Made by a program: the position numbers and the translations under genes. Positions 2,071-37,124 of a DNA stretch of 38,450 nt are shown in pieces (position 1 is the stretch's first letter; every line of letters begins with the position of its first letter). Below the pieces are notes generated by a model. The model was given only the letters and a program-made list of their open reading frames with translations. It was not told the DNA's origin and made no database searches. Source of the DNA: a virus (taxonomy: Duplodnaviria; Heunggongvirae; Uroviricota; Caudoviricetes); IMG/VR virus record IMGVR_UViG_2778261515_000019, positions 1 to 38,450 of that record, one strand, 5' to 3'.

Positions 2071-3072
2071 TTAAGCAACCAAACGAAGGGTAGGTCTTGC
2101 TTTCTTAATTTCATGTTTAATTTCTGGCTTAGTAAGTTTGCACAGTTCATCAATCGGCTGTAAGGTTGCTGGCGATCTACGTTGCGCGTACTTCTTATCT
2201 AAGCTAGCCCACAGATCCCGCGCTTCTTCTACTTCAACCAAAAGAATATTAGCTTGATGATAGAACTTAACCGCATCTTCCCACGTTTTAGCATTCTTGA
2301 TCTTAGTCTTCATGCTGTTAAATCGGCCTAGAAGCTGTTTTGCTTGTGCCTCTGCTTCTTTACGTGGGCGATCCCGTTCTTCCTGCTCTGCTTTCTCTTT
2401 GGCCTTAATCGCTTCCAGATTGGCTTTATATGCACAAACTTGATGGTCGTGGTCTTCAATACATGCTGGAACTTTAGGTTTTGTCACATAGAATTGAAAC
2501 ACAGTTTTTCCTAAATTGCCTTCCACATCGATAGGGAAGGTGTAGGATTTCATGTCGCTAAGTTCAACGCTGTTATCGTCGGTAGACACCAAAGCCAGAT
2601 TATAACGGCAATAGCTATTTTCTTTAATGCGGATCGTATAAACGTTTGATGTTTTCGGCGTACACTGAACAACATTACCAAAAGCGAAGACAGTAGCGAC
2701 ACCACCACGGCTAATCACAACCATAGCAACGCCTTTCTTCTCTTCATCGTAAAACCCACTAAGTTCATAACCAACCACAGAATAAACCAGACGATCACCA
2801 GTTTTATTGATGAAGCTGTTAATCATAGTATGTTCTTCTACCGTCAGCTTGATACCGTGTTTCATGATTTCTTTAATGACATTCTCAGAATCTTTAGCGC
2901 GGGGATTCTGAATAGAAAACAATTCCTGATAATAATCACCGCCGTTAAGATTATCGGTGAATTTGAAGTTTGCGGTAACTCCACCGTCAAAGGTGGAGGT
3001 CAGACGAACGTTTACCAGTGATTCAGTTTCTTCTTTGTTGAGTTTTTTGTTGTCGATTGCGTAAATGTTCAT
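2071..3072 (-). CDS. Hypothetical protein, 333 aa, globular N-terminal region plus charged C-terminal coiled-coil-like region
   Basis: Long ORF, 27-bp gap to upstream gene on same strand; KE-rich helical segment KEKAEQEERDRPRKEAEAQAKQ; no family recognised. Confidence 0.6.
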   Translation of the reverse strand: MNIYAIDNKKLNKEETESLVNVRLTSTFDGGVTANFKFTDNLNGGDYYQELFSIQNPRAKDSENVIKEIMKHGIKLTVEEHTMINSFINKTGDRLVYSVVGYELSGFYDEEKKGVAMVVISRGGVATVFAFGNVVQCTPKTSNVYTIRIKENSYCRYNLALVSTDDNSVELSDMKSYTFPIDVEGNLGKTVFQFYVTKPKVPACIEDHDHQVCAYKANLEAIKAKEKAEQEERDRPRKEAEAQAKQLLGRFNSMKTKIKNAKTWEDAVKFYHQANILLVEVEEARDLWASLDKKYAQRRSPATLQPIDELCKLTKPEIKHEIKKARPTLRLVA

Positions 3073-3099: not shown

Positions 3100-4101
3100 T
3101 TAAGCTGCAAAATCAAGTAATTCGCGGTCCATCTCATCCATAGCCGGAATGGTTGGAACATATGGTTTATATCCTTCTTCTACATCAAGAAGGTTGTTTA
3201 AGCTGGCATCAGAAATATCACAAGAAACCACGGTTAACGCTGGTTTGATAATCGGCTGATCAACAGTAACCGCCTCCGGTGCTTCTTTTTCTTCTTTCGC
3301 TTCTTCCTGGGTAGCTGCCGGAACTACTGCTACCTTAACTTCCGGCGCTTTAACTTCTTTTGCTTCCAGTTCTTCTACACGGATTTCAAGAACTTCAATT
3401 TCTTTTTTCAGACTAATGTTTTCTTCCATCAGCATAGCGAATTTGCGTTCCATCTCAGCAAGACGTTGCTCAAAAGCACGATGCGCATCAGACAGAATCT
3501 GAATATCACGCTGCTGTAATTCTTCTTCGTAGTTGGAAACGGTTTTTTCTTTAGTGGTTTCTTTCCATACTGCCTTATCAACAGCGTTAACATTCAGTTT
3601 AGCTTTGTTGGAAACGAAGAAAGAAATATTGAATTTCTCACCGTGAGCACAATCAGACCATGCACCAACAACACTAGAAGCCAGAGCAAAGTTTTTAACT
3701 TTACCATTAACGAAACGGCCTTTAGCATCGCGGCGGGAAGCGTGGATCATGTTACCCCAGAGGCTACCAGCTTCATCTTGCAGGATAGACACTACATAGG
3801 ATTCGTCGCCGTTCTTGTAAGCGATAGCATATACTTCGCGCTGGTCTGGTTTAACCATTGCTTTCAAAGTAGCTTTCTTACGCTCTAAACCACGGTATTC
3901 TTTTTTCCAGTCGGAACCAGCATGATAGAGAGTGGTGTACAGAGAATCGATAGATTCTTCTTTATAAATATTAGTGCCAATAGTTAATTCGTCGGCTTCG
4001 TTGCTGCCATAGTTACGAATTTCGATATCTGCATCGTACTGATATTTTGCGGTGTCTGCGGTGTTGCTGTAAACGGTAATAGAGAAGTTATTTTGTTTCA
4101 T
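3100..4101 (-). CDS. Hypothetical protein, 333 aa, N-terminal globular domain, central coiled coil, acidic C-terminus
   Basis: RBS AGGAA upstream of ATG; heptad-like LAEMERKFAMLMEENISLKKEIEVLEIRVEELEAKE; same length as neighbour; no family recognised. Confidence 0.6.
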   Translation of the reverse strand: MKQNNFSITVYSNTADTAKYQYDADIEIRNYGSNEADELTIGTNIYKEESIDSLYTTLYHAGSDWKKEYRGLERKKATLKAMVKPDQREVYAIAYKNGDESYVVSILQDEAGSLWGNMIHASRRDAKGRFVNGKVKNFALASSVVGAWSDCAHGEKFNISFFVSNKAKLNVNAVDKAVWKETTKEKTVSNYEEELQQRDIQILSDAHRAFEQRLAEMERKFAMLMEENISLKKEIEVLEIRVEELEAKEVKAPEVKVAVVPAATQEEAKEEKEAPEAVTVDQPIIKPALTVVSCDISDASLNNLLDVEEGYKPYVPTIPAMDEMDRELLDFAA

Positions 4102-8549: not shown

Positions 8550-10454
8550 ATGAAACTGATTTCAAATAAGGCAAAATTAAAAAAGATTCTCAGAAATATC
8601 TCTGCTGCAATTCGCCCACCTAAAGCCATGAAACCTAGCGAATGGGTAGAGGCTAATGTAGTTGCAACCGATGGTGTTAAAGCCGGATCGCTAATTAAAT
8701 TGCATCCCTTCCAACGTGGAATGATGGACGCGATCACCGAAGACCGTAGAAAAATTGTGTTTAAATGTTCGGCGCAGTTGGGTAAGACCATGATTCTTAA
8801 CGGAATTATCTTCCATCGGATCGCGAGTAACCCTACGAATATTGGGGTGTTGCAAAGTAACGTTAGGGAACTAAATTCTTGGATCGCTGGTAAGGTGAAG
8901 CCAGTATTAGAGGCAACCCCAGAATTAAAGGCGATGATCACCGACAAATCAGATCGCAATGCCGTTAACAACTCATCGATTATTCAGCTTCGTAACGGAT
9001 CATTCATGTATTTCATGTCGTTGAATAGTCCGTCACATCTTCGCGGTAAAACACTCCCTTTGATTATTCTTGATGAAGTTGATGCGGCTGATGAGTCAGA
9101 CGAAGGGAACCCGATCCAGCTAGCGGAACAACGCGCAACCACTTTCGGGGAAGATGCAAGGATCGTAATTGCTTCCACTCCAACCGCTCGTGATGGGGCG
9201 ATTAACCAACAATGGGAACTCTCGGATAAGAGAAAATATCATGTCGTTTGTCAGCATTGCGGACACCGACACGTAATGGAATGGAGTAACGTTTATTTCG
9301 ATTGGCATACGATTAACGGTAAGTCATTACCTAACCCAGATACAGCCGTTTACCGCTGTCCTGCATGTGAAACCGACTGGACCGAAGGGGATCGCCTACG
9401 TGCTGTTGCTAAGGGAGAATGGGTCGCCACCGAACCAAATGCGGAAGTAATCGGTTTTCATGCTAACCGCCTTATGTCTCCGTTTAGTTCTATCCGTGCG
9501 TGTGTGGTGGACTTTGCTGATAGCTACGCGAATATGTCCCTGGCAACGTTCTACAATACAGTCCTCGGTGAAACCTTCGATGATCTTAACGAAGACCGCA
9601 CAGCCGACGAATTAGAAACGCTGAAAACTGATATTAGACTAGACAATATTCCTGATGATGTACTGGCTCTGGTTGGTGGAGTTGACCAGCAAAAAGACCG
9701 TCTGGAATCTACCTTGCTGGGTATTTCTCGTAAAGGGCTATGCGTAGTTGATCACCGATCATTCTATGATGTGAACTGCGAACGCCACGAATCGCCAGCA
9801 TATGACCAGCTTTACAACTTCCTGAAAGCTAAATTCTATACCCGATCCGGTGAACGAATCCCGATGTTATCTGCTTTCGTGGACTCATCGAACGGACGAG
9901 CTACAAACGTGATCTATCGATTCTGTAGTCGGTGGCAAAATCTAACCGCCATTAAAGGCGCAAGCAATGTTGATGCACCAATCCTTCCGGTAAAAGACAC
10001 AAGAACGGGTGGTTTTACCCTTAAAATTCTGGGCGTAAACAACCTTAAAACGATGATCCGTGAAATGATTAACCGGAATTTGAGAGATGGCGATCCTCAC
10101 ACTGTCTTCCAGATTGGTGACGTTCCTGATGACTATTGCGAGCAATTGCTTTCTGAACAGTTGAAACGGCAGGGTAATACCACACGTTGGGTAAAAGTTG
10201 GTCAGCAACGAAACGAGGCTCTCGACTGCCTGGCTTATTCCTATGCTGCTTCTCGCCATGTACTCAATAAAATGTCATGGGAAAAACTCGAAGCCATCAA
10301 AGATAGTTTGAACCGTGAACCAGAAGAATCCGTAGAAGCTCCTAAATCGCAATCTGACGAGAAAATAGAAGAAACTAAGCCAATCACACGACCACAACGT
10401 CAAAACATCGCCAGACGCCCAAATAGAGGCCGTGGCTGGGTAACATCGTTCTAA
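8550..10454 (+). CDS. terL: Terminase large subunit, GpA (lambda A) family
   Basis: 634 aa; motifs LHPFQRGMMDAI, ILDEVD, NTVLGETF, IKGAS, RNEALDC align with lambda gpA as recalled; start of long plus-strand morphogenesis operon. Confidence 0.85.
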   Translation: MKLISNKAKLKKILRNISAAIRPPKAMKPSEWVEANVVATDGVKAGSLIKLHPFQRGMMDAITEDRRKIVFKCSAQLGKTMILNGIIFHRIASNPTNIGVLQSNVRELNSWIAGKVKPVLEATPELKAMITDKSDRNAVNNSSIIQLRNGSFMYFMSLNSPSHLRGKTLPLIILDEVDAADESDEGNPIQLAEQRATTFGEDARIVIASTPTARDGAINQQWELSDKRKYHVVCQHCGHRHVMEWSNVYFDWHTINGKSLPNPDTAVYRCPACETDWTEGDRLRAVAKGEWVATEPNAEVIGFHANRLMSPFSSIRACVVDFADSYANMSLATFYNTVLGETFDDLNEDRTADELETLKTDIRLDNIPDDVLALVGGVDQQKDRLESTLLGISRKGLCVVDHRSFYDVNCERHESPAYDQLYNFLKAKFYTRSGERIPMLSAFVDSSNGRATNVIYRFCSRWQNLTAIKGASNVDAPILPVKDTRTGGFTLKILGVNNLKTMIREMINRNLRDGDPHTVFQIGDVPDDYCEQLLSEQLKRQGNTTRWVKVGQQRNEALDCLAYSYAASRHVLNKMSWEKLEAIKDSLNREPEESVEAPKSQSDEKIEETKPITRPQRQNIARRPNRGRGWVTSF

Positions 10455-10526
10455 TAACTCGCCGTCCTTCGGGGCGGCTTACTCCTAAATATTGTTAATC
10501 CAATAACAATTAAATAAGGGGTGATT

Positions 10527-11021
10527 ATGAGTTTAGAACTAATTCCCTTAGTAATTCGTAAAGGCGAAAAAATCACGCTGGCGAATGAAGAGGGTGTAAC
10601 AATTCAGGTAGGAAATAGTAAAGGTATCATTTATCAGGTTGATGATACTCCGGCTAATCACGAGATTAAAACCTTAGATTTTGCCGAGGGTAAATATACC
10701 ATCGTAACCACTTTGGAAGAAGAACTGGTATCAATGCAGGAATTAACTGTATTGCCAGTATTCGCCAAACAATCCAAAAAAGAACATCTGCGGGAGACTA
10801 TCGCCAAAATCGAGCAAGTTATTTTCGCCCGTTTATCTGGGGACGAAGCCGCATTATCTCAAATGACCGTGAAAGGGAATACTTTCGCCTATGAGTCATT
10901 AGGTGTTCTCCAGCAATTAAAGACTGATTATGAACGTCAACTGTCTAAATTAATTCAAGCCGAACGACGTAAACAGGGAATTAGCCCGATTAAAAATATC
11001 AAATTACGTCTTACGCGATAA
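10527..11021 (+). CDS. Head-tail joining or head-completion protein (position-based; gpW position)
   Basis: Between terL and portal; RBS AAGGGGTG before ATG at 10527 (track ORF starts at upstream GTG 10521). Confidence 0.4.
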   Translation: MSLELIPLVIRKGEKITLANEEGVTIQVGNSKGIIYQVDDTPANHEIKTLDFAEGKYTIVTTLEEELVSMQELTVLPVFAKQSKKEHLRETIAKIEQVIFARLSGDEAALSQMTVKGNTFAYESLGVLQQLKTDYERQLSKLIQAERRKQGISPIKNIKLRLTR

Positions 11022-11031
11022 GGGGTAAATC

Positions 11032-12543
11032 ATGTTTAATCTTTTTCGACGCAATAAGGCGGTAGAAACTCCAGTTAAAACTAATCACCGCCAGCAACAA
11101 CAAAAAATCTTTATCGACAAACAAGTAGAAAAATTCCAGAAAGATTTGTCTAAGCGTTCTTTGGGCTTAGTTGGTGATCGCATTGATGGATCGCTTCAAC
11201 AAGATACTATCACAGGAACCTTCAATAAGGCTCTCAAATCGAACGGTAAACGCCTTTATGATCAGGGTCGTACTCTGGCTATAAACAATGCTGTAGGTAA
11301 GCGATACAAGCAGTATATCGTTGACCAAGTTGTTGGTACGGGGCTTGATCCGAAGCCGTCAATCGTTAAATCAAATGGCAAACTTGACACCGCACTGAAT
11401 AAGCAGATCGAGAATGCTTTCTGGAAGTGGGCGCAGAGTGCTAAACGCTTCTCTCGCAACGGTCGCTTTAACTTCCGTGAAATGCTGGCAATGGCAGAAT
11501 CTGAACGTGTTCAGGGTGGAGAATGCTTCATCGTTTTAACCAAAGAAAACAATGAGTTACAAGTTTCTATTCTGTCTGCTGATAGGTGCGACTGGTCGCT
11601 TAGTCGTGAAATAAGCAAAGACCGCGCTATCTATCAGGGGATCGAGTATGACGTAGAAACAATGCGCCCTGTTGCATACTGGTTTAGAAAAATCAATCTA
11701 CTGACTCAGACCTACACTGGCGAAAATTATCGCGTAGATGCTTCGCAAGTGTGTCATTACTATCAGCCCTTGTGCGCCGAGAGTTTGCGCGGCGTGACCG
11801 ACTTCCTACCAGTGATTAAGGATATTGCGCATCAAGAAGCGTTCCGCGAAGCTGTACTGGTCCAGAAACGAATTTCAGCTAGTAGCATGGCGTTCATCGA
11901 GCGTCCGAAAGATTCTGGTGACGATTTTGATACTGGTGAAGATGATGAACAATATCAAGCGCCGGAAGTTATTCACGATTTCGCGCCAGGTACTATTCAG
12001 GAATTACCGGAAGGGGCAACGATCAAGAGTATTCAATCCACGCAAAGCGGCGATGATTTCAATTCCTTTAACGCTGGTATGTTCACTAGCATAGCAATGG
12101 GTCTTGGCGTGTTCAATCAGGGCTTAACTGGTGATACTAGCCAAATCAACTACAGCGCCGCGCGTTTCGGTGAACTACTTCAACGTAACCGTGTTAAATC
12201 GCTACAAAACAAATTGATTGAAACAGTGGTATTGCCAATTTTTGAAGCATATCTACGCCATTATTCCGCGCGTGGTATTGTTCCGATTCGTATTACTGCA
12301 ATCCCGCATATTATCGAGAACACTACTATTATTCGTCCGCGTTTTGAGTCCGTCGATGTTATTAAAGATGTGAACGCTGATATTGCTTTAATTGATAAAG
12401 GACTTAAATCACGTACTGCTGTTATTTTGGAACGTGGCGACGATCCAGAAAAGGTATTTTCAGAGATCAGGTCTGAATCCAGTGCACTAAATATTATCGT
12501 TAATGGCGAGGGTGAAGAAAAAAATTCCCCAGCCGATCCCTAA
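11032..12543 (+). CDS. Portal protein (lambda gpB-like)
   Basis: 503 aa immediately after terL and connector gene; size and position typical of portal. Confidence 0.75.
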   Translation: MFNLFRRNKAVETPVKTNHRQQQQKIFIDKQVEKFQKDLSKRSLGLVGDRIDGSLQQDTITGTFNKALKSNGKRLYDQGRTLAINNAVGKRYKQYIVDQVVGTGLDPKPSIVKSNGKLDTALNKQIENAFWKWAQSAKRFSRNGRFNFREMLAMAESERVQGGECFIVLTKENNELQVSILSADRCDWSLSREISKDRAIYQGIEYDVETMRPVAYWFRKINLLTQTYTGENYRVDASQVCHYYQPLCAESLRGVTDFLPVIKDIAHQEAFREAVLVQKRISASSMAFIERPKDSGDDFDTGEDDEQYQAPEVIHDFAPGTIQELPEGATIKSIQSTQSGDDFNSFNAGMFTSIAMGLGVFNQGLTGDTSQINYSAARFGELLQRNRVKSLQNKLIETVVLPIFEAYLRHYSARGIVPIRITAIPHIIENTTIIRPRFESVDVIKDVNADIALIDKGLKSRTAVILERGDDPEKVFSEIRSESSALNIIVNGEGEEKNSPADP

Positions 12544-12588
12544 TAACCAACGGGGGCGCAATGCCCCCAATTAATTAAAGGTGATTAA

Positions 12589-14598
12589 ATGCTTAAATTT
12601 CGCCGCGATCTTAACGGTTACGGTGGAGTTATTAATGAAGGGCATAACGATCAATACGAATTTGAAATTGCTTTCTCAAGTACACAGCCTTATCAGCGCC
12701 AATTTTGGGATGAGCAAAATCAAGAAATGGTGGTATTAGATGAAATTCTGGTACATACACCGGAAGCGGTTGATCTGTCTCGTCTGAATAATAACGCTCC
12801 GTTGCTGTTCAATCATAATTTCGATAATCACATTGGTGTAGTCTGCGACGCTCGAATCGATGCGGATAACGTAGGCCGTGCTCTGGTTAAATTCTCTAAG
12901 CATGGCACTTTGGCTAATGATATTCGCAATAAAGTCATTGAAGGTACGATGGAAAAAATTTCTGTCGGTTATGACATTAAAGAATATCACATCGACTACA
13001 CCAAAGGGCAATTGATTGTTACTAAGTGGGCGCCTTTTGAAATTTCATTTGTGACGGTTCCCGCAGACGATTCGGTCGGTTTAAATCGCTCTCTAAATAC
13101 TATCACAGTTAATTTGGGGGCTAAACGAGATATGACTAAAGAACAAATCGAAGAAATCAAAGAAGAACAAGAATCAGCTCAGGTTGAAGAAACTCCGGTA
13201 GAAGAAAATAAAGAATCGGAAGTTGAAGAAACTCAAGAGCGCCAAGTTGAAGAGAATAAAGAAGATGAAAATCTCGAAGACGGAAAAGACGCTAAACATC
13301 CTGAAAGTGTTGATGATGATAGTTCAACTGTTCGGGAAACAGAAGAAGTAAAAGAAGAACGTGAAGCCGCTCCGGTTGAAGAAGAAAAAACCGAAGAAGT
13401 GGCTGAACGTTCCGAAGAAGACGAAGAAGAAATCCGAGCAATTGCGCGGGAACTAAATATTGATGACTCTGAATTAGCACGCGCATTGGCAATTAAAGAC
13501 ATGACGCCGGAAGCATTCCGCACTAAGGCACTAAATAATCTCGTCAATGCTCAACGTAATAACGAACAAATTAAGGACTCTAAAATGGAAAAAACTTTTG
13601 ACCTGAACAACGTAATTCGCTCTCTGGTAGATGGTGCTGCTCTGGGTGCTAACGAAGCTGAATATTCCGCTATGGCTGCTGGTGCTGCAATGCAGCGTGG
13701 TCGTGCTGCTCGCGGTGGCTCTGTATTCGTTCCGGCTGCTGCTCTGCGTGCTGCTTCCGAAGGTAACACCAAAGCTACTCTGACCGCTGTAACCGACGAA
13801 AAACTGCTGACTGAATCCTACATCGAAATGCTGCTTCCTGCTTCGTGTCTGGGTCGTCTGGGCGTGACCGTCCTGTCTGGTCTGAATGCTCCGATTGCTG
13901 TACCGAAAATGACTGCTTCCAGCGTTGATGCTTTCGGTTTCGTTGATGAAAACGGTGCTGCACCGGAAAGCAAAGCTGAATTTACAAACGTGAAAATGGC
14001 TCCGAAAACTTTTGCTGGTGGCAACCCGATCAGCCGTCAGTCTCTGAAAACTGTTCCGAATATTGCTACCCTGATCACTGATCACATTAACAAAGCTGTT
14101 CGTATCAAACTGGAACAACTGATTCTGTCTGACAAAGCTAACGAACGTGGTCCGAAAGGTCTGGTTAAGCAACTGGTAGACGCTAACCGCGTTACTAAGA
14201 AAACTGCTTTCTCTTACAAAGACTTCCTGAAAGAAATTGCAGCACTGACCGACGCTGGCGTTCCTGCTCAGGCGATCAAGTTCGCTATGAGTGGTGCAAC
14301 TGCTGCTGAACTGGAATCTACCCCGAAATCCGATCGTGGTGACGCTCAAGGCTTCATTATGGAAAACGGCAAACTGGCTGGTTACGATGTAGTTACTTCT
14401 GGCGTTATTCCGGCAGACCACATCGTTCTGGGTGACTTCTCCGGTATCATGATCGGTGAATGGGGTGGTCTGGAACTGGATATGGACGACACCACTTACC
14501 GCGCACAGTCTGCTATCGTTCCGCGTATCTGGGTAGACCTGGACTTCACCGTAGTTCAGCCGGAAGCTCTGAAAGTTCTGAAAATGGGCGAAGAGTGA
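12589..14598 (+). CDS. Prohead protease - acidic linker - scaffold-like coiled coil - HK97-fold major capsid protein, fused in one 669-aa ORF
   Basis: N-terminus has U35-type prohead protease motifs PLLFNHNFDNHIGVV and ISVGY; residues about 180-300 Glu-rich; C-terminal about 300 aa Ala/Gly-rich with capsid-like LSDKANERGPKGLV; optimal codons. Confidence 0.7.
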   Translation: MLKFRRDLNGYGGVINEGHNDQYEFEIAFSSTQPYQRQFWDEQNQEMVVLDEILVHTPEAVDLSRLNNNAPLLFNHNFDNHIGVVCDARIDADNVGRALVKFSKHGTLANDIRNKVIEGTMEKISVGYDIKEYHIDYTKGQLIVTKWAPFEISFVTVPADDSVGLNRSLNTITVNLGAKRDMTKEQIEEIKEEQESAQVEETPVEENKESEVEETQERQVEENKEDENLEDGKDAKHPESVDDDSSTVRETEEVKEEREAAPVEEEKTEEVAERSEEDEEEIRAIARELNIDDSELARALAIKDMTPEAFRTKALNNLVNAQRNNEQIKDSKMEKTFDLNNVIRSLVDGAALGANEAEYSAMAAGAAMQRGRAARGGSVFVPAAALRAASEGNTKATLTAVTDEKLLTESYIEMLLPASCLGRLGVTVLSGLNAPIAVPKMTASSVDAFGFVDENGAAPESKAEFTNVKMAPKTFAGGNPISRQSLKTVPNIATLITDHINKAVRIKLEQLILSDKANERGPKGLVKQLVDANRVTKKTAFSYKDFLKEIAALTDAGVPAQAIKFAMSGATAAELESTPKSDRGDAQGFIMENGKLAGYDVVTSGVIPADHIVLGDFSGIMIGEWGGLELDMDDTTYRAQSAIVPRIWVDLDFTVVQPEALKVLKMGEE

Positions 14599-14690: not shown

Positions 14691-14716
14691 AGCCCTGCCT
14701 AACGGTGGGGCTTTTT
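14691..14716 (+). terminator. Rho-independent terminator (copy 1 of duplicated module)
   Basis: AGCCCTGCC-TAAC-GGTGGGGCT followed by TTTTTTG. Confidence 0.7.
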
Positions 14717-14747
14717 TGTATGTAAATACTCCATAAAGGGGGTAACT

Positions 14748-15453: not shown

Positions 15454-16287
15454 ATGAATATTACACAAGATAACTTAGACATTTTCACGGGGTCGCATGT
15501 TGAAGTGTCGATCTCTAACCAGCTAGACAATCAGGTCGACTTTTTCGATCCTAGCTTTAGTTCTATGGAGAACATCGCAGCATTCCCTACGCTAACAGAA
15601 TCCACAGAGATTGAAACTCTGGAAGAGTACGATCAGGACGCTACGGGGAAACTTGCTGGTTATCGTAGACTGGAACCGACAACACTCACATTAAACCGTG
15701 TTCTTGACGATGAACATCAAGCAATGTTGATGAAAGCGGTAGAGGATAAAACACCTTTACGCTTCCGTATGTTCTATGTTGTGAACTCTGGCTATAGTGC
15801 TGCTAACACTGGTTACTATGTCATCTATGACGCTTATGTCACTAGTCACAAAACCCGTGGCGCAGATAACAAAGCTGTAACACTGGAATTTAAACTTGAA
15901 CCAGATGGCGGGATTCTAGCAAGGGGTATAGCGACCGAAGGCCGGATCTTACGTCAGGGTGATTTTGGTTTGGGTGCTGGTGTAAATCCATTCACGGGTC
16001 CGATTGATAGCGAGGCATTAGCAGGAAACCGTTTCGTAACTTACAAGGGAACCGCTAGCGGTAATCCATATTCAACCGACACAGCATTAATTCACCTTCA
16101 AGCTAATGAGCATGGCGCATGGCAATTAACCTGTAATACTTCTGGCGCACCGCGTTTACGTGTCCGAAATATTCAGGAAAACGGTCGTTCTGAATGGATC
16201 AAGGTATATTCCACCAATGAGAAACCGACACCTAGCGAAATTGGCGCAGTGGCTAAGACTGACCGGATCGATTTCGGTGAGTATTAA
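15454..16287 (+). CDS. Tail-tube-fold structural protein (tail terminator or second tube-like protein)
   Basis: Segment TLTLNRVLDDEHQAMLMKAVEDKTPLRFRMFYV parallels DLTLTVNYIPGDSVHEKLIKAAEDGTRVQIKIEYYV of the 20036..20509 protein. Confidence 0.45.
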   Translation: MNITQDNLDIFTGSHVEVSISNQLDNQVDFFDPSFSSMENIAAFPTLTESTEIETLEEYDQDATGKLAGYRRLEPTTLTLNRVLDDEHQAMLMKAVEDKTPLRFRMFYVVNSGYSAANTGYYVIYDAYVTSHKTRGADNKAVTLEFKLEPDGGILARGIATEGRILRQGDFGLGAGVNPFTGPIDSEALAGNRFVTYKGTASGNPYSTDTALIHLQANEHGAWQLTCNTSGAPRLRVRNIQENGRSEWIKVYSTNEKPTPSEIGAVAKTDRIDFGEY

Positions 16288-16364: not shown

Positions 16365-19300
16365 ATGCAGTCGATCCAATTTAAACGCACACAAACGGCT
16401 GGTAAAAAACCAACGCCGGAACAATTATCACAGGGTGAAATCGCCTTACAGTTGGCGGATCATGTGATTTACACCAAAGACAAAAATAATAACGTAGTCC
16501 AAATTAGTGTTTCTCCAGAAAAACACGCTGAACTGAATACGAAAGTAGACAATAACAAAACTAGCACTGACCGTGTTATTGCTTCCAACAAACAAGAAGC
16601 CGCTAATAATCTGGCTAGTGCTAAAGCTGAACTGAATCAGACTATTACCACGAAAGATACAGCGACCAATAAGCGCATTGATGCTACTAACACCACGGTT
16701 AGTAACTTAACCCAGACAGTCACGGCAAATAAAACCGATGCTGATACTAAGATCAATAACCTTACGGGGACAGTTGCATCTAACAAATCAGCTATAGAAA
16801 CTACTGTAGCAAATAATAAACGAGATGCGGACAATAAAATCGCAGCTTTAACCACGACGGTTAATGACAATAACACCGCGATTAACAACAAAGTTAATAC
16901 CACTAACACCAACGTTAGCAACTTAACTAAAACTGTTACTGCAAATAAAACCGATGCAGATAACAAAATTTCTAGCTTAACTAGCACGGTTGCAGCTAAC
17001 AAAACAGCGATTGAAAAGGTCGTTTCCGACAACAAGAAAGATGCTGATACGAAGATCACCAACTTAACCAACACTGTTAATAGCAACCACACCGCCATTA
17101 ACAACAAGGTTGACCAGAATAAATCAGCTACTGATTCAGCGATTGCAGCCGCTAACCGTCGAATTGATGGTATTGAAGGTAGCAACGATGCTCTTTACAT
17201 CAAGAAGAATACCAACACTAAGCACGGCGGGTATCTGTTAAGCAAGACAGCTAACTATCTGGAAGACCAGACATCACGAGATCTTAACTACTTTGGTGCT
17301 TTCCGTACCAATGGTCTTGATGGACTCATGGATCTAACTCTTAACGTTCCTCACTCTGCCGGTAAAGCTCACGGTCGCGGATTTACTTTCCGTTATGCGT
17401 CTGGTGGATCTCGTGTTGAAACCTATGGTTTTGATAGAGATGGACAGAAGAACTTTAGCTATAAGATGTATCACGAAGGTGATAAGCCGACTCCTGGCGA
17501 GATTGGTGCATACACCAAAGCCGAAGTTGATAAGATGTTTGTTAAAAACGTCGCTATGTCTGTTCCCAATTCTAGCGAAAACGTATCTGCATATTTCAAA
17601 TTGGCAACCGCAACAATTCCACAAAACGGGCGTAGTGTGTTTTTCCGTATTCATGGTGGTGATGGTTACAACGTTGCGGCATATGACCAAGTTGATGTAG
17701 TAGAAATTCTTCTCCGTAGTGGTAACGATAGACCTAAAGGACTTAACGTAGTTGCATATCGTCGAAATACCGTCAAAGATTTTGATGTATTTGCCGTCAA
17801 TACATCCGGTGATAACTATGACATTTATGTGAAATATCAGCGTTACACTGATAACGTTATTGTAGAATATGGGAAATCTGTTAATGTAAGTCTGACGGTT
17901 TATGATACGCCGGAAGCCACGTTAATTAAACCTTCTGTTGGTGTTATTGGCGGTCGCGCGGTAACTCTATTCAATACAGAAAACAAACGAGGTGTGTTGA
18001 GTTTTGACGATAACACACAAAATAGTTATGATATTGTTCACTTGAGTAATGATAGGGGTACTGGACGAAAATATATTCGTAAATTCCGTAGTAACTATAA
18101 TGAAATGATCTGGCACGAGACGGTTCAAGGCGCCAGCTATCGTCTGGCTACTGGTGCAACTGATGCTCAGGAGATTCTAACCGTTGAATCTGTTAGCTCA
18201 ATTGCTGGAACTCATAAAGGTAATATTACTTCTGGCCGTATGCTGTTAAATGGCGGTAGTAATGTTATTACCTTGCGGCGTCCTGCTGGTCAATCCAACC
18301 ATATTGCGTTTCAAGATAATCGGACTGGAGATATTACCCGTCAAGGGTGGATCGGTTATGCCAATGCTGATACTAACGTTTTTGAATGGTATAGTGATGT
18401 AGGTGGCAGTTCTATTCGTCAACATATCGACGGACAGATCGAACTTGCAACCGGTAACACAAAACGCGTTTATACTAACGCTCAATTCATCTCAATGAAT
18501 AGCGACGCCTACCGTATGCTCTATGGTAATTATGGTGCATTCTGGCGTAATGACGGCGTTAAAGTTTATCTTCTTTCTACTGCCGAAAATGATAAATTGG
18601 GCGGATGGAATACTTATCGTCCATTCATTTATGATTTAACTTCCGGTAACGTTCAATTAGGCGGTGATGGTAACGAAGATGCATTAACGTTAGAACGTGC
18701 TTCTCGTGCCGCTCGCTTTAGTAATGACGTTTACATTAAGAAAGGGCATTTGACTTTCGACGCTGGGCGATTAAATTCCCGCGATTACTTCCGGTTTAAC
18801 CATTGGGGTGATAGCAATAACGGTCGCGATAACATCCTACAGATTGAAGACAGTAAGGGCGCACATTTTACCACTGAACGTACTTTATCAACTGGTGCGA
18901 TTAAAACTAAATTCTTCGGTGATTTGGAATCTGCTGGTCAAATTAAATGGGGTAAAGGGACCGCCGCATCTACGTTTACTCTACGTGTATGGGGTAACGA
19001 TAGTCGTAAACAAATATTTGAATGTGGCGATGAAAGTGGGTGGCATTGGTATACCCAACGACCTGGCGGTCCAGGTACTACAGCAATAGAATTTGCTATC
19101 AACGGTACTGTTAAGCCTCAAGCAATTCACAGTGGCGGTAATATCACTATCAACGGTGCTGATATTGAGTTTCGTCGCAGTGGCAATAAGCATTTGTGGT
19201 TTAGAGATCCGAACGGTTTAGAGTTAGGCTTGATGTACTGCGATGATGCTGGTGCTATTCGCTTCCGTGGTCAGAAACAAGCCCAGGCGTGGAAATTTGC

Positions 19301-19979
19301 AGATAAAATGATCCAGTTGGAATCTGGCACTGTATCCGGTGGCGGTAATGGCCTGATTCGTGGTGAAGTTGCTGGCGGTAGTTGGGCTAGCTGGCGTGAC
19401 CGTGCTGCTGGCCTTATGGTTGGGTGTCCTCAATCCACCAACTCGGCACATAACGTATGGAAAGCGACGCATTGGGGTAAATATCACATTGCAGCAATGG
19501 CTGTACATGTTCCTGATGGTACTATTACCAATGCTTTAGCTCGCCTAAACGTTCATGACGCCAACTTTGACTTTAACGCTGCGGGTGATTTTAGCGCAAG
19601 TCGTAATGGTAGCTTTAACGATGTTTACATTCGTTCGGACCGTCGTCTGAAAGTTAATCTGGAAGAATTAAAAGATGATGCTTTAGAGAAAGTAAACTCC
19701 CTGAAAGTCTACTCATACGATAAAGTTAAGTCTCTTAAAGATCGTAGTGTGATTAAACGCGAAGTCGGTATTATTGCTCAGGATCTGGAAGAAGTATTGC
19801 CGGAAGCAGTAGGTATTCAATCCACCGAAGATCCAGAAAATCCAGAAGCAATTAAGACTATTTCTAACTCTGCTGTTAATGCCTTGATTATTAAAGCTAT
19901 TCAGGAAATGGACGCCAAATATCAAGCTAAGATTGAAGCATTGACTAAAGAGATTGCCGAACTCAAAGCAACTAAATAA
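16365..19979 (+). CDS. Long tail fiber with N-terminal Thr/Asn-rich tandem repeats and C-terminal intramolecular-chaperone-like domain
   Basis: 1204 aa; two ~72-aa repeats NxSNLTxTVTANKTDADxKI...; C-terminal SDRRLKVNLEEL...VYSYD...GIIAQDLEEVLPEAV resembles autoproteolytic chaperone domains of fiber/endosialidase proteins. Confidence 0.8.
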   Translation: MQSIQFKRTQTAGKKPTPEQLSQGEIALQLADHVIYTKDKNNNVVQISVSPEKHAELNTKVDNNKTSTDRVIASNKQEAANNLASAKAELNQTITTKDTATNKRIDATNTTVSNLTQTVTANKTDADTKINNLTGTVASNKSAIETTVANNKRDADNKIAALTTTVNDNNTAINNKVNTTNTNVSNLTKTVTANKTDADNKISSLTSTVAANKTAIEKVVSDNKKDADTKITNLTNTVNSNHTAINNKVDQNKSATDSAIAAANRRIDGIEGSNDALYIKKNTNTKHGGYLLSKTANYLEDQTSRDLNYFGAFRTNGLDGLMDLTLNVPHSAGKAHGRGFTFRYASGGSRVETYGFDRDGQKNFSYKMYHEGDKPTPGEIGAYTKAEVDKMFVKNVAMSVPNSSENVSAYFKLATATIPQNGRSVFFRIHGGDGYNVAAYDQVDVVEILLRSGNDRPKGLNVVAYRRNTVKDFDVFAVNTSGDNYDIYVKYQRYTDNVIVEYGKSVNVSLTVYDTPEATLIKPSVGVIGGRAVTLFNTENKRGVLSFDDNTQNSYDIVHLSNDRGTGRKYIRKFRSNYNEMIWHETVQGASYRLATGATDAQEILTVESVSSIAGTHKGNITSGRMLLNGGSNVITLRRPAGQSNHIAFQDNRTGDITRQGWIGYANADTNVFEWYSDVGGSSIRQHIDGQIELATGNTKRVYTNAQFISMNSDAYRMLYGNYGAFWRNDGVKVYLLSTAENDKLGGWNTYRPFIYDLTSGNVQLGGDGNEDALTLERASRAARFSNDVYIKKGHLTFDAGRLNSRDYFRFNHWGDSNNGRDNILQIEDSKGAHFTTERTLSTGAIKTKFFGDLESAGQIKWGKGTAASTFTLRVWGNDSRKQIFECGDESGWHWYTQRPGGPGTTAIEFAINGTVKPQAIHSGGNITINGADIEFRRSGNKHLWFRDPNGLELGLMYCDDAGAIRFRGQKQAQAWKFADKMIQLESGTVSGGGNGLIRGEVAGGSWASWRDRAAGLMVGCPQSTNSAHNVWKATHWGKYHIAAMAVHVPDGTITNALARLNVHDANFDFNAAGDFSASRNGSFNDVYIRSDRRLKVNLEELKDDALEKVNSLKVYSYDKVKSLKDRSVIKREVGIIAQDLEEVLPEAVGIQSTEDPENPEAIKTISNSAVNALIIKAIQEMDAKYQAKIEALTKEIAELKATK

Positions 19980-20035: not shown

Positions 20036-20509
20036 ATGTCTCAACAATTCAAAGATATTTTTACTGGTGGTTTGGTAAGTCTGTTCTATCACGCTGATAC
20101 CACTAACACCGCTCTCAACCATGAGGGGTATGAAGAAATTAAAGAGTGTGCTGGTTTTCCTGAAACTGGTATCGAGCGCGGTACTGTAGAAGTTAAATCC
20201 TTCTCTTCTCAGTATAACCGTAAACTGGTAGGGAAGCTGAACGTTCCTGATCTGACTCTTACGGTGAATTACATCCCCGGGGATAGTGTCCACGAAAAAT
20301 TGATCAAAGCTGCCGAAGACGGCACAAGAGTACAAATCAAAATAGAGTATTATGTTGACGCCGGAAAACAGACTGGTATTCGCACCGCTTTCAACGGCTT
20401 CATTTCTAAAGTTGCTATGAACGGTGGCGATGAAGAAGTGGTAACTAAAGAGTTTACCTTTGCAGTGGACGGCAAACCGCTGAAACAGGAAATCTTCACT
20501 GCCGGATGA
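20036..20509 (+). CDS. Major tail tube protein
   Basis: 157 aa; strong RBS AAGGGGT; followed by terminator module as for capsid gene; tube-like motif DLTLTVNY ... FTFAVDG. Confidence 0.6.
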   Translation: MSQQFKDIFTGGLVSLFYHADTTNTALNHEGYEEIKECAGFPETGIERGTVEVKSFSSQYNRKLVGKLNVPDLTLTVNYIPGDSVHEKLIKAAEDGTRVQIKIEYYVDAGKQTGIRTAFNGFISKVAMNGGDEEVVTKEFTFAVDGKPLKQEIFTAG

Positions 20510-21227: not shown

Positions 21228-21536
21228 ATGAATATTAATGAAATGCTGAAAGCTCTTTCTCCGAAACGTGAATCTCTGACCATCGGTGGATTTACTTTCT
21301 ATGCTCGCCCTATGTCAGTAAAAGAATTTAACGAACATGTTTTCAATACTGATAAAGAAGACCGTGATGAACGTTCTATTCTTCGTTGTATTGAAGATGA
21401 AGATGGTAAACCGGTATTTGAATCTATGGAACAAGTTAAGGCACTGTATACTAACGTCCGCAGTGAATTAATCGGTTTGGTTGCTCAAGCATCATTGATG
21501 CAAGATCCGGCAGTAATTGAAAACGAGGTAAAGTAA
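21228..21536 (+). CDS. Tail assembly chaperone (G-like)
   Basis: 102 aa directly upstream of the tape measure gene; overlapping -1 frame ORF follows. Confidence 0.6.
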   Translation: MNINEMLKALSPKRESLTIGGFTFYARPMSVKEFNEHVFNTDKEDRDERSILRCIEDEDGKPVFESMEQVKALYTNVRSELIGLVAQASLMQDPAVIENEVK

Positions 21537-21916
21537 ACCCGCTTCTGAATTTCTACTTTCGGCAAATGATGCGATCGGGGCTTAGTAAAGATGAAATGGA
21601 TAATATGCCAATCACTCTGTTTTGGAAATTATACATTTTCGACACCTACTTAGAACCACAAAGCCCCGCGTTTCATGATATGCAGAATGCGATGTTGCAA
21701 TATTCCATGTATATGACGTCACAAGGAATGACACGCGAAACTGCACGTAAACTCAAGCCTAGCCAATTCCAATTAATTAGAGAAGAAAAACTCTTTAAAA
21801 CTAAAGAAGAACTGGAAGAACTTGCACGCAAGAAAGAAGAAGAACGTAAAGCTGCAACATTGAGCATGTTCGATCCATCTTTGCTTGAGAAACTCAGAAG
21901 CGCACAAACGGGGTAA
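21521..21916 (+). CDS. Tail assembly chaperone frameshift extension (GT-like product via -1 slip near 21530-21533)
   Basis: -1 frame open from 21521 to 21916; candidate slip A-AAG immediately before the G stop codon TAA. Confidence 0.5.
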   Translation, partial: KRGKVNPLLNFYFRQMMRSGLSKDEMDNMPITLFWKLYIFDTYLEPQSPAFHDMQNAMLQYSMYMTSQGMTRETARKLKPSQFQLIREEKLFKTKEELEELARKKEEERKAATLSMFDPSLLEKLRSAQTG

Positions 21917-35395: not shown

Positions 35396-37075
35396 TTAAA
35401 TTCCAAATTCCTGTAATGGACCTGGTATTTCCTCTTCTGGTTTCCAGTTCTTATCTGTCAGCATGTCTAAACATGGATGCAGAACAAGCCCGTTACTCTC
35501 CAGAATCTGCCTATCATTGATAGTCTTCAAATCAACGAAGATCCGGCCTTTCCTCGGTCCTCTTGAATTTTCTATTACAACTCTCTGGGTCTTGCCATCG
35601 ATGTATTCCAGTACAAACAAGTTTTTGTACTTGTCAATCCTGCTACACCCGATCCGTTTTAGAGCTTGCTTAATCTTAAACCGGACCTTAATGCGATCCT
35701 CATTATAAACATCTTCTAAATCAAATTCTGCGAGCTTCTCCCAGCCTTGAGAGTCCACAGAATACATTTCCTCTTCTGCCATCTTAATCTGATTGTAGAG
35801 TGTTTCACGCTCGCTATTGAGGGTAGTAATCTGGTCGGCTAACTCCTTCGTTGCTCCTGTCATAGCAGAAAGGGTAATCAGGTTATCAATCTTGCGTGAT
35901 ATTTCATCAATCTGTACTTTCAAAGCCGGAACCGGATTAGCCTTATCCTCAGCAATCCAGATTTTATCAGCCAGCAATTGCAATACAGCTTTCTCTAATT
36001 GATCACCTCGAAAACTCCAGTTTGTATGCACACATGCAATACGACTAGAGCGCATTGCATCGCATGAATAACGATATTGGTTAGGACGTTTGTTAGTTCC
36101 TTTCACCTTAACCATAGCGGAACCGCAATGTTCACATTTCAATAGACCAACACCACTAAGCAAGGGAATAGGTTTAACTTCTTCCTTGTCTCCATAGTTA
36201 CATGCTCTAACACCAATGCTTTTCTTAAGGTGATAAAACTCAGCGTCATCTAGCACACGAGGATAATAATCCTTTAACTCATACTTAACGCCATCTACAG
36301 AGATTTCCTTGATACCAATCAAAGCGCGGGTATGGAACAACCTTTCAATCATTGCCCGTGACCAGTTTGAATGCCTCTTGTGACTTGCGGCTGGTGGTGG
36401 TGTATATGTCGCGTTAAGGTGATCCAGTATTTCGGCGGTAGACCGTCCATTCCTGCGTAATTCCACAACCTCCTGAACAATAGGGAAGAAGACCGGATCG
36501 GGACACACATAACCGGAAGTGGTATCAGTCCACCACATATTCTTTCCAATTTCCTCGATTGCAACAGCCGGATTTTGTGGATTTTCTTGATGAGCTTTAA
36601 TCTTAATCAATGCGCTTGAGTTAGTACGATTGCGCTTAGTCTGACTTTCCTCGTTAGCTCTCGCAAACAACATGACACTCAACAGCAAATCAATAGGATT
36701 GGCATTAACCGATTCCTTGCTATAGACCTTACCATCCATGCCAGTTACGATAGTTATTCCCCTACGGATAATCGAGAGAAATAGCTCTTGTGCTTCAATG
36801 ATGGATTGGCGAGAGATACGGTCCAAGTTTTCCACAACCAGCCAGCTACCAACCGGAACAGATCGACCAATCTCATCCAGAAAGCGAGATAGTGCACCTG
36901 TTCTACTGTTAGCCCCTTTGAATGCAGATACACCAAAATCCTGATAGCTTGTAACTAGCTCAAGATCATATTTTGCGGCTATCTCTGCGGCTGTTCTCTT
37001 CTGGCGTTCATAAGAACTACCATCCGCTTGCTTCATAGACGAGAAGCGAATATACGAATACAGTTTAGTTTTCAT
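35396..37075 (-). CDS. Large serine recombinase (resolvase/integrase family)
   Basis: N-terminal catalytic motif YSYIRFSSMKQ...ERQ; central recombinase domain; zinc-ribbon Cys cluster CEHCGS...SCD...CVH; C-terminal coiled coil; ATG at 37075 (track ORF starts at TTG 37090). Confidence 0.8.
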   Translation of the reverse strand: MKTKLYSYIRFSSMKQADGSSYERQKRTAAEIAAKYDLELVTSYQDFGVSAFKGANSRTGALSRFLDEIGRSVPVGSWLVVENLDRISRQSIIEAQELFLSIIRRGITIVTGMDGKVYSKESVNANPIDLLLSVMLFARANEESQTKRNRTNSSALIKIKAHQENPQNPAVAIEEIGKNMWWTDTTSGYVCPDPVFFPIVQEVVELRRNGRSTAEILDHLNATYTPPPAASHKRHSNWSRAMIERLFHTRALIGIKEISVDGVKYELKDYYPRVLDDAEFYHLKKSIGVRACNYGDKEEVKPIPLLSGVGLLKCEHCGSAMVKVKGTNKRPNQYRYSCDAMRSSRIACVHTNWSFRGDQLEKAVLQLLADKIWIAEDKANPVPALKVQIDEISRKIDNLITLSAMTGATKELADQITTLNSERETLYNQIKMAEEEMYSVDSQGWEKLAEFDLEDVYNEDRIKVRFKIKQALKRIGCSRIDKYKNLFVLEYIDGKTQRVVIENSRGPRKGRIFVDLKTINDRQILESNGLVLHPCLDMLTDKNWKPEEEIPGPLQEFGI

Positions 37076-37086
37076 ACCATTTCCAA

Positions 37087-37124
37087 ACAAAAACGCCCCT
37101 ACCGCGTATTATAACGATAGGGGC
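37087..37124 (-). terminator. Terminator between gene 37141..37386 and recombinase gene
   Basis: 10-bp stem GCCCCTACCG/CGATAGGGGC (one wobble in RNA sense) then U-run in minus sense. Confidence 0.5.

Follow-up and report, generated by a model that had tools for sequence, protein, structure and literature searches.

The 38,450-nucleotide stretch of viral DNA analysed here (IMG/VR record IMGVR_UViG_2778261515_000019, positions 1 to 38,450; Caudoviricetes; hereafter the window) carries at 12589–14598, stop codon included, an ATG-initiated open reading frame (ORF) of 669 amino acids (~74 kDa). In its product a prohead protease, a linker, a helical segment and a capsid domain follow one another. 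The reading of this gene that is best supported by its sequence, and that we consider likely, is that it comprises a nested in-frame gene pair, yielding a minor protease–capsid fusion and an abundant capsid precursor that lacks the protease. The proposed inner gene would run from Met333 to the common stop codon (13585–14598) and encode a protease-less precursor of 337 amino acids (~36–37 kDa); it and all features described below lie on the plus strand unless stated otherwise. An earlier note on this DNA had taken the ORF to encode a single polyprotein, so that a protease and a scaffold would come with every capsid subunit. That view of the capsid subunits is probably wrong, because the evidence for a strong start at Met333, though indirect, is convergent.

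Upstream of ATG333 (13585–13587), and separated from it by a spacer of 7 nt, is an internal Shine–Dalgarno (SD) sequence, AAGGA, which occupies 13573–13577 within codons Lys329–Asp330. When the 63-nt mRNA segments at the 16 in-frame ATGs of the ORF were compared, that at ATG333 was the least structured, at −1.5 kcal/mol against a background of −10.9 ± 4.7. A scan of the ORF for an internal sigma-70-like promoter found none, although the scan was crude and a promoter is still possible.

Codon usage changes abruptly at the same place. The codon adaptation index (CAI), a composition-sensitive measure calculated here with the Sharp and Li weights for E. coli, is 0.341 for codons 1–332 and 0.761 for codons 333–669, while the 31 other large ORFs of the window have values of 0.19–0.56. 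A likelihood ratio between highly expressed E. coli genes and the other genes of the window was also computed for each codon, given its amino acid. The best single change point by this measure falls after codon 329. Before it, the mean log-likelihood ratio (LLR) is −0.47, within the range of 26 other ORFs (−0.05 to −0.85); after it, the mean is +0.27, which makes this the only positive segment in the window. The statistic for a two-segment split reached 108, as compared with 34 or less in seven other long ORFs (permutation p<1/300). If translation began at ATG1 only, all codons would be translated at the same frequency, and selection on translation would have no means of telling the two halves of the ORF apart.

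Conservation of the start was followed in four samples: 120 E. coli variants of the protein, 151 family representatives, an alignment of an 18-member sub-clade (29–90% identity), and a scan of viral contigs that provided 80 loci with DNA, of which 32 encode proteins with 88–94% identity, one a protein with 43% and 47 proteins with 32–37%. Met333 is invariant in all 120 E. coli variants, and the segment that adjoins it upstream, residues 291–332, is the most variable part of the protein. In the sub-clade alignment Lys329 is invariant and Met333 nearly so, amid a linker that is otherwise unalignable. At the level of DNA, AAGGA followed by ATG is present at the equivalent position in 80/80 loci, down to 32% identity, and occurs there in 20 different nucleotide contexts with spacers of 7, 9, 10 or 13 nt. 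The duplexes that these SD sequences would form with the anti-SD have energies of −5.1 to −6.2 kcal/mol; among 827 control in-frame ATGs, 9% have −5.0 or lower and 4% are preceded by a core SD pentamer. The motif is encoded as Lys(AAG)–Asp/Glu(GAN) in 79 loci and as Lys(AAA)–Gly(GGA) in the remaining one. Lysine codons in these genes favour AAA over AAG by ~4:1, yet the SD uses AAG, and the residues between SD and ATG vary freely (DSK, EQI, ESI, EKN, ESK, DDK, EDKK, DDEN, DVNT and others).

The step in codon usage is likewise seen when no host is assumed. The effective number of codons (Nc) is 46.6 upstream of Met333 and 36.0 downstream, flanking genes having ~50; it is lower downstream of the equivalent Met in 76 of 77 distinct loci, and divergence from the codon usage of flanking genes is greater downstream in all 77. 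When the last 180 codons and the flanking genes were used to train a change-point test, the median distance between the change and the Met was 3 codons; in 40/71 loci the change lay no more than 15 codons to either side of the Met, where about five would be expected from a uniform distribution. With the E. coli weights, distant loci in enterobacteria gave splits close to the Met (split/Met 303/298 in L094, 306/309 in L044, 294/299 in L045, and 292/298 and 307/299 in others), one distant branch of loci residing in Leclercia. The same weights gave scattered splits in distant loci without an assigned host, so that only the enterobacterial loci are interpretable with them. A conserved step in codon bias at a conserved and accessible SD and ATG is explained most simply by an abundant product begun at Met333.

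The overlapping λ genes C and Nu3 served as a positive control. The part unique to C has a CAI of 0.285, like that of the portal gene (0.281), and the Nu3 part a CAI of 0.402, nearer to D (0.430) and E (0.449); this is the same signature of codon adaptation as that found here, at smaller amplitude. In HK97, whose protease and capsid genes are separate and 2 nt apart, the values are 0.333 for gp4 and 0.487 for gp5. Protease–capsid fusions of other phages also show the step. The best codon-bias split lies at 181 in DCP80, where an SD and ATG occur at 180 (AAGGA); at 218 in ep3, with SD and ATG at 216 (GAGGA); at 218 in HeidiAbel (217); and at 224 in Arya (215), with p<1/300 for each. In these four phages, whose hosts are E. 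coli or Enterobacter, the in-frame SD and ATG sit directly after the protease domain. A post-protease SD and ATG is also found in VP882 (M185), phiHAP-1 (M152), R4C (M189, GGAGGA), RcCronus (M190) and Mica (M221).

We lean, by a little, towards a more general conclusion, that the widespread protease–capsid fusion genes of tailed phages are nested pairs in which a conserved internal ribosome-binding site sets the ratio of protease to capsid protein and the protease is tethered to a minority of the shell subunits. The internal start would then have moved in evolution. In the lineages of DCP80, ep3, VP882 and R4C it would lie after the protease, so that the major product keeps a delta-like domain; in the E. 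coli/Leclercia lineage it would lie after the linker and helices, so that the scaffold-like segment is contributed by the minority long form only.

Several observations weigh against nested expression, or limit the case for it. The 80 loci include many close relatives and represent perhaps 8–10 independent lineages. Synonymous variation around the internal SD, measured in 31 distinct close variants, has its lowest regional value there (0.028), but other segments are similar; the test is not decisive and we do not use it as support. A Met at the position equivalent to 333 is not universal in the family, as we had considered, since a nearby Met occurs in only 71 of the 151 representatives, and FoX1 and S-CBS1 are without an obvious internal SD and ATG. 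Among the close variants (loci L012–L043), synonymous codon diversity is 0.172 in the capsid half (13585–14595) as compared with 0.083 in the protease/linker half (12589–13584), and the recombination histories of the two halves may be partly distinct. Since the helical scaffold-like segment would be missing from the proposed major product, this reading does not account for scaffolding of the shell in this lineage. Finally, neither for this phage nor for its relatives did the literature searched yield protein- or ribosome-level data.

Apart from the question of the start, we note that an Arg-Gly indel at residues 583–584 divides the E. coli population 74:46. Together with the higher synonymous diversity of the capsid half, it suggests differing recombination histories or diversification of the capsid surface.

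Of the alternatives to a pair of products, the one that fares best is a set of three, in which Met182 is used as well and gives a linker–scaffold–capsid form of 488 amino acids, the analogue of HK97 gp5 including its delta domain. We regard this as possible but doubtful. Met182 is a weak candidate for an additional start (13116–13134), preceded by GGGGG (GGAGG in most variants) with an 11-nt spacer. This upstream motif is conserved in 32/32 E. coli-type loci, where its duplex energy is −8.4 to −9.3 (−8.4 here), ATG182 has the second most open mRNA segment of the ORF (−5.4), and it corresponds in position to the starts proposed after the protease in DCP80, VP882, R4C and phiHAP-1. However, the spacer is long, codon bias shows no step at Met182, the linker that follows being no more optimised than genes of low expression (LLR −0.38), and 44 distant loci of the same sub-clade lack an ATG in the 60 codons that follow the protease domain.

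A true polyprotein with a single product, as the earlier note had it, would require each of ~415 subunits to carry protease, linker and scaffold into the procapsid, to be removed after assembly by auto- or trans-cleavage. The ORF is indeed uninterrupted and has a good SD at ATG1; the public annotation is of one protein; and the mature capsid protein of R4C shows that the whole N-terminal part is removed. Nor does the head module contain a separate protease or scaffold gene, no signature of either, or of a decoration protein, having been found with Pfam and PHROG in the other ORFs between the terminase and tail genes. Nevertheless, a single product is improbable. The first 332 codons resemble those of low-expression neighbours and the last 337 those of a gene of very high expression, and the two parts meet at a conserved SD and ATG. 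Furthermore, by rough estimate, 415 copies of a ~44-kDa N-terminal cargo would amount to ~18 MDa, which would take up about half of the space inside a T=7 procapsid and, as roughly, would be ~3–4 times the internal protein content of the HK97 prohead.

It is more improbable still that the codon step and the internal SD and ATG are unused relics, left by fusion of a protease/scaffold gene to a capsid gene with its own expression or by a mosaic recombination joint. HK97 gp4 and gp5, in which the gp4 stop lies 2 nt before the gp5 start, offer an obvious unfused ancestor, and the difference in synonymous diversity between the capsid and protease halves fits a joint. An unused SD, ATG and codon bias should decay, however, whereas here they are kept at 32–37% protein identity within a linker that can no longer be aligned, and the lysine codon stays AAG against genomic preference. 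In addition, the step in other clades lies at a different SD and ATG, for which a single relic does not account. Least credible of all is a cause of the codon asymmetry unrelated to expression, such as slow translation of the protease for co-translational folding or the composition of the Glu/Lys-rich linker: CAI does respond to amino-acid composition, which is extreme in the linker, but the same change point emerges from the amino-acid-conditioned likelihood ratio, Nc and the divergence from flanking genes concur, the upstream part is indistinguishable from 26 other ORFs rather than specially de-optimised, and translational 'ramps' are generally known to span tens of codons, not 330.

The N-terminal domain of the 669-amino-acid product, residues ~21–165 (12649–13083), is a prohead serine protease of family S78 (HK97 gp4-type, formerly U35). 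Peptidase_S78 (PF04586) matches residues 40–162 with 41.7 bits against a curated cut-off of 21 (E 1.7e-10). The predicted catalytic residues, His76 (codon 12814–12816) and Ser125 (codon 12961–12963), align with His65 and Ser114 of HK97 gp4 at an identical spacing of 49 residues; the HK97 pair is reportedly the catalytic dyad (MEROPS S78; Duda et al. 2013). Both residues are invariant in 20/20 aligned proteins and in all 120 E. coli variants, and they are found in 149 (His) and 151 (Ser) of the 151 family representatives. A sequence search of the protease domain against the PDB gave no match, and its identification at that level rested on comparison of folds, which revealed a fold like that of herpesvirus assemblin and T4 gp21.

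A Glu-rich linker, predicted to be disordered, follows at residues ~168–272 (13090–13404). The predicted local distance difference test (pLDDT) score in the AlphaFold model of the full-length protein is below 50 here, and the acidic stretch of residues 176–290 contains 41% Glu plus Asp. The linker is unalignable between clades. Its repeats are degenerate only, the best having a 24-nt period, 2.6 copies and 75% matches. We also considered the linker as a hot-spot for indels in the E. coli population and rejected this, as it shows single-residue indels at one site (249–251) in 6 of 120 sequences, as compared with the 74 of 120 that carry the capsid-domain Arg-Gly indel. The three helices that come next (276–288, 293–301 and 307–327 in the AlphaFold model; pLDDT 65–75) make up a scaffold-like segment, residues 276–327 (13414–13569), which keeps an 'ER.R..EI..I...' motif across clades in an alignment of 12 phages and which may have a scaffolding role.

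Beyond a low-confidence junction at residues 323–334, the model is of moderate confidence for residues 336–400 and shows a confident HK97-fold domain from ~410. Residues 333–397 (13585–13779; two helices and a short strand, pLDDT 54–66) would form the pro-region of the short product, and residues 398–669 (13780–14595) the HK97-fold capsid domain, with N-arm, E-loop, P and A domains. Phage_capsid (PF05065) matches residues 412–666 (E 2.3e-25). The closest structural relative is the capsid protein of roseophage R4C (8gta), both by phmmer (chain 8gta_A, E 5.2e-22) and with Foldseek (E 4.6e-18), where it is followed by the capsid proteins of 80alpha/SaPI1, HK97, D3, gene transfer agents and other HK97 folds. 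These results bear out much of the earlier note: profile matches, catalytic residues and folds agree on a protease, an acidic linker, a helical scaffold-like segment and an HK97-fold capsid domain in one ORF, and the protease fold proposed for the N-terminal region is there. The linker is, as the note said, of low complexity, and its repeats are degenerate.

The same note had called the arrangement an unusual economy, and here it does not hold. The protease–capsid fusion is an already known, named and common design, of which the E. coli gene is one more member. It has PHROG families of its own: the whole length of the protein is covered by phrog_617 ('major head protein', 626 positions; E 1.9e-93), and a further match is to phrog_4523, 'major head and protease protein'. 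With tblastn, 110 phage records gave matches to the fusion protein; those spanning both halves include VP882, phiHAP-1, R4C, RcCronus, FoX1-3, ep3, ECO1230-10, HeidiAbel, Arya, S-CBS1/3 and Mica. In each of 11 annotated phage loci the portal gene is followed directly by a single ORF of 602–836 amino acids. When 1.84 billion cluster representatives (50% identity) were searched exhaustively and without a profile, 6,743 matched, at least 452 of them at E<=1e-30. The architecture occurs in hundreds of such clusters, and nearly all of the top 150 matches are 565–700 amino acids long with both domains aligned. The literature, too, already interprets the family as protease, scaffold and capsid protein in one.

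No deposited phage has a homologue closer than that of DCP80, at 45% identity. The record concerned (PQ671644.1, 'Escherichia phage DCP80') is 141 kb long and is classed as a T4-like Gaprivervirus, yet it contains a λ-type portal and protease–capsid fusion module; it may be a chimeric assembly or contaminated with prophage. A protein of 297 amino acids, P0140, was considered as a natural unfused relative and rejected, because it is encoded by a fused gene that an IS3-family insertion has cut short, in prophages that have decayed. Several E. coli genomes (L095–L098; e.g. AP028561.1, 906285–913178) have a related fusion gene that ends after ~297 codons at such an insertion, marked by ORFs with HTH_Tnp_1 and rve domains, and the interrupted loci keep a 'stand-alone' protease–linker ORF in a decayed prophage.

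The two products might act together as follows. Initiation at ATG1 would give the minor 669-amino-acid fusion, and initiation at AAGGA-N7-ATG333 the much more abundant 337-amino-acid precursor without protease or linker. Long and short forms would co-assemble through their common capsid domain, and the covalent link would thereby place sub-stoichiometric proteases, with the acidic and helical segments, inside the procapsid; tethering of this kind would replace the C-terminal targeting tail used by the free gp4 of HK97. After assembly, the protease would remove all that is N-terminal to about residue 375–398 from both forms, leaving a mature capsid protein of ~270–295 amino acids. Use of the internal start, the ratio of products, co-assembly and the position of cleavage are what we infer from sequence. 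As to cleavage, the solved R4C capsid chain has 268 residues, corresponding to residues 362–629 of a 629-amino-acid gene product, and its first residue aligns with Leu398; by analogy, the pro-region of residues 333–397 is probably removed at maturation. The paper on the R4C structure makes no statement on a precursor, a protease or the mature size. In the literature searched we found no prior description of nested expression in the fusion family, which is not proof of its absence.

The gene is the head-assembly gene of a λ-like siphovirus prophage of E. coli. Its product is identical to an NCBI entry, 'major capsid protein [Escherichia coli]', and hundreds of variants that are 94–98% identical and 666–670 amino acids long are deposited there. 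Of 5,426 complete E. coli genomes, 58 have the module in the chromosome as a prophage, and the gene is annotated there as 'phage major capsid protein'. A search of phage records at the DNA level gave no near match, and the window is an uncharacterised prophage. Upstream of the gene, Pfam and PHROG profile matches identify a gpA-type large terminase (8550–10454), a small head–tail joining protein (10521–11021) and, directly before the fusion ORF, a λ-family portal (11032–12543); downstream are small head-completion ORFs and then siphovirus tail genes. The SD of the full-length ORF, as read from the sequence, is AAGGTGAT (12578–12585), 3 nt 5' of the ATG at 12589, and the mRNA at ATG1 is weakly structured (−5.8 kcal/mol, the third most open in-frame ATG of the ORF). 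The portal stop and the fusion ORF are 45 nt apart, and within this gap, just 5' of the SD, is a GC-rich hairpin, CGGGGGCGCAATGCCCCCA (12551–12569); it has no plus-strand T-run and could be an element of mRNA processing, stability or attenuation. A terminator-like hairpin of the intrinsic type, with a 9-bp stem, six GC pairs and a run of TTTTTT, lies 3' of the ORF at 14691–14720. Terminators are annotated at the equivalent place in HK97 and phage Mica.

Some features of the rest of the window may be recorded here. Its GC content is ~42%, well under the E. coli average. Two adjacent minus-strand ORFs, at 3100–4101 and 2071–3072, are of exactly 333 amino acids each, without a PHROG match or similarity to one another; the upstream ORF of the pair has a CAI of 0.557, the highest in the window apart from the capsid part of the fusion gene. 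A tail assembly chaperone ORF and a 116-amino-acid ORF without matches (21228–21536 and 21566–21916) lie immediately 5' of the tape-measure gene, where a G/GT-type programmed frameshift pair is usually found, and may be such a pair. The integrase (35396–37090, minus strand) is a large serine recombinase of 564 amino acids (phrog_95, E 7e-57, plus an invertase-family match) and not a tyrosine integrase. Two tail-tube-like ORFs, at 15454–16287 and 20036–20509, are paralogous (28% identity over 160 amino acids, E 6e-14), and both match positions ~15–157 of phrog_158, 'major tail protein'. They flank a gene for a 1204-amino-acid protein like a long tail fibre (16365–19979), the N-terminal third of which consists of imperfect tandem repeats, 'T(V/A)xxNKTDADxKIxxLT', and the C-terminal part of which matches families of the distal subunit of long tail fibres (phrog_1699, E 5e-155). 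A duplicated major tail protein alongside a capsid–protease fusion has been described in actinobacteriophage clusters AU, AM, BI, DJ and CC (bioRxiv 10.1101/2020.01.10.891226).

The fusion in itself is ordinary, being a known, widespread and already annotated architecture in a common E. coli prophage. If the nested reading is true, the interest lies elsewhere, in a capsid-tethered protease delivered from a nested gene, which would be a further solution to the dosing of the protease, available to hundreds of phage lineages, and a new variant of the nested-gene strategy. The dosing and targeting of proteases into procapsids are solved differently in HK97, by a targeting tail, in λ and the herpesviruses, by nested protease/scaffold genes, and in T4. 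Annotation would also be affected, as in thousands of database entries the 600–700-amino-acid product is given a single start and the name 'major capsid protein'. There would be a practical bearing on the expression of such genes for capsids or nanocompartments, and on proteomic and cryo-EM work, the R4C structure paper being silent on the precursor.

Among the closest known systems is the fusion family of deposited phages, which has, like the E. coli gene, an S78 protease, a variable linker, a helical segment and a PF05065 domain in one ORF directly after a λ-family portal. The E. coli gene differs from the other fusion clades in that its linker is unusually long and acidic and in that its conserved internal start lies at the end of the linker and helical region, at Met333, and not directly after the protease. 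Another counterpart is provided by prophages of Paracoccus, in which ClpP(S14)–gpT capsid fusions of ~700 amino acids, with the protease N-terminal, were found in 34% of the Siphoviridae prophages surveyed (PMC6536676). Their protease belongs to S14 rather than S78, and their capsid Pfam family is Mu gpT.

HK97 gp4 and gp5 share with the E. coli gene the protease family and its catalytic His and Ser, the capsid fold and the gene order, and in HK97, likewise, the protease removes the N-terminal part of the capsid precursor. The gp4 protease is separate, however, whereas that of the E. coli prophage is covalently joined to a capsid subunit. The HK97 enzyme is reportedly less expressed than the capsid protein and is said to enter the prohead by means of its own C-terminal tail. 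The two systems would differ, too, in what the capsid precursor carries, for HK97 has a delta domain of 102 amino acids on every subunit, while the proposed major product in E. coli would keep only a ~65-residue pro-region (residues 333–397), the helical segment of residues 276–327 lying 5' of the proposed major start.

In the mode of expression proposed, the closest parallels are λ C/Nu3, herpes simplex virus 1 (HSV-1) UL26/UL26.5 and HFTV1 gp17/gp17.5, in each of which one ORF has two in-frame starts, the long form has the protease and the short form is far more abundant; for HFTV1 the evidence is from ribosome profiling and mass spectrometry, which recently demonstrated the nested pair (bioRxiv 10.64898/2026.09.13.751334). 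The C-terminal module shared by the long and short forms of these systems is a scaffold that leaves or is degraded, whereas in the E. coli gene it would be the capsid protein itself, so that the protease would be tethered to the shell rather than to the core. The E. coli gene as we propose it works like the nested protease/scaffold pairs, but it does not belong to the protease/scaffold type.

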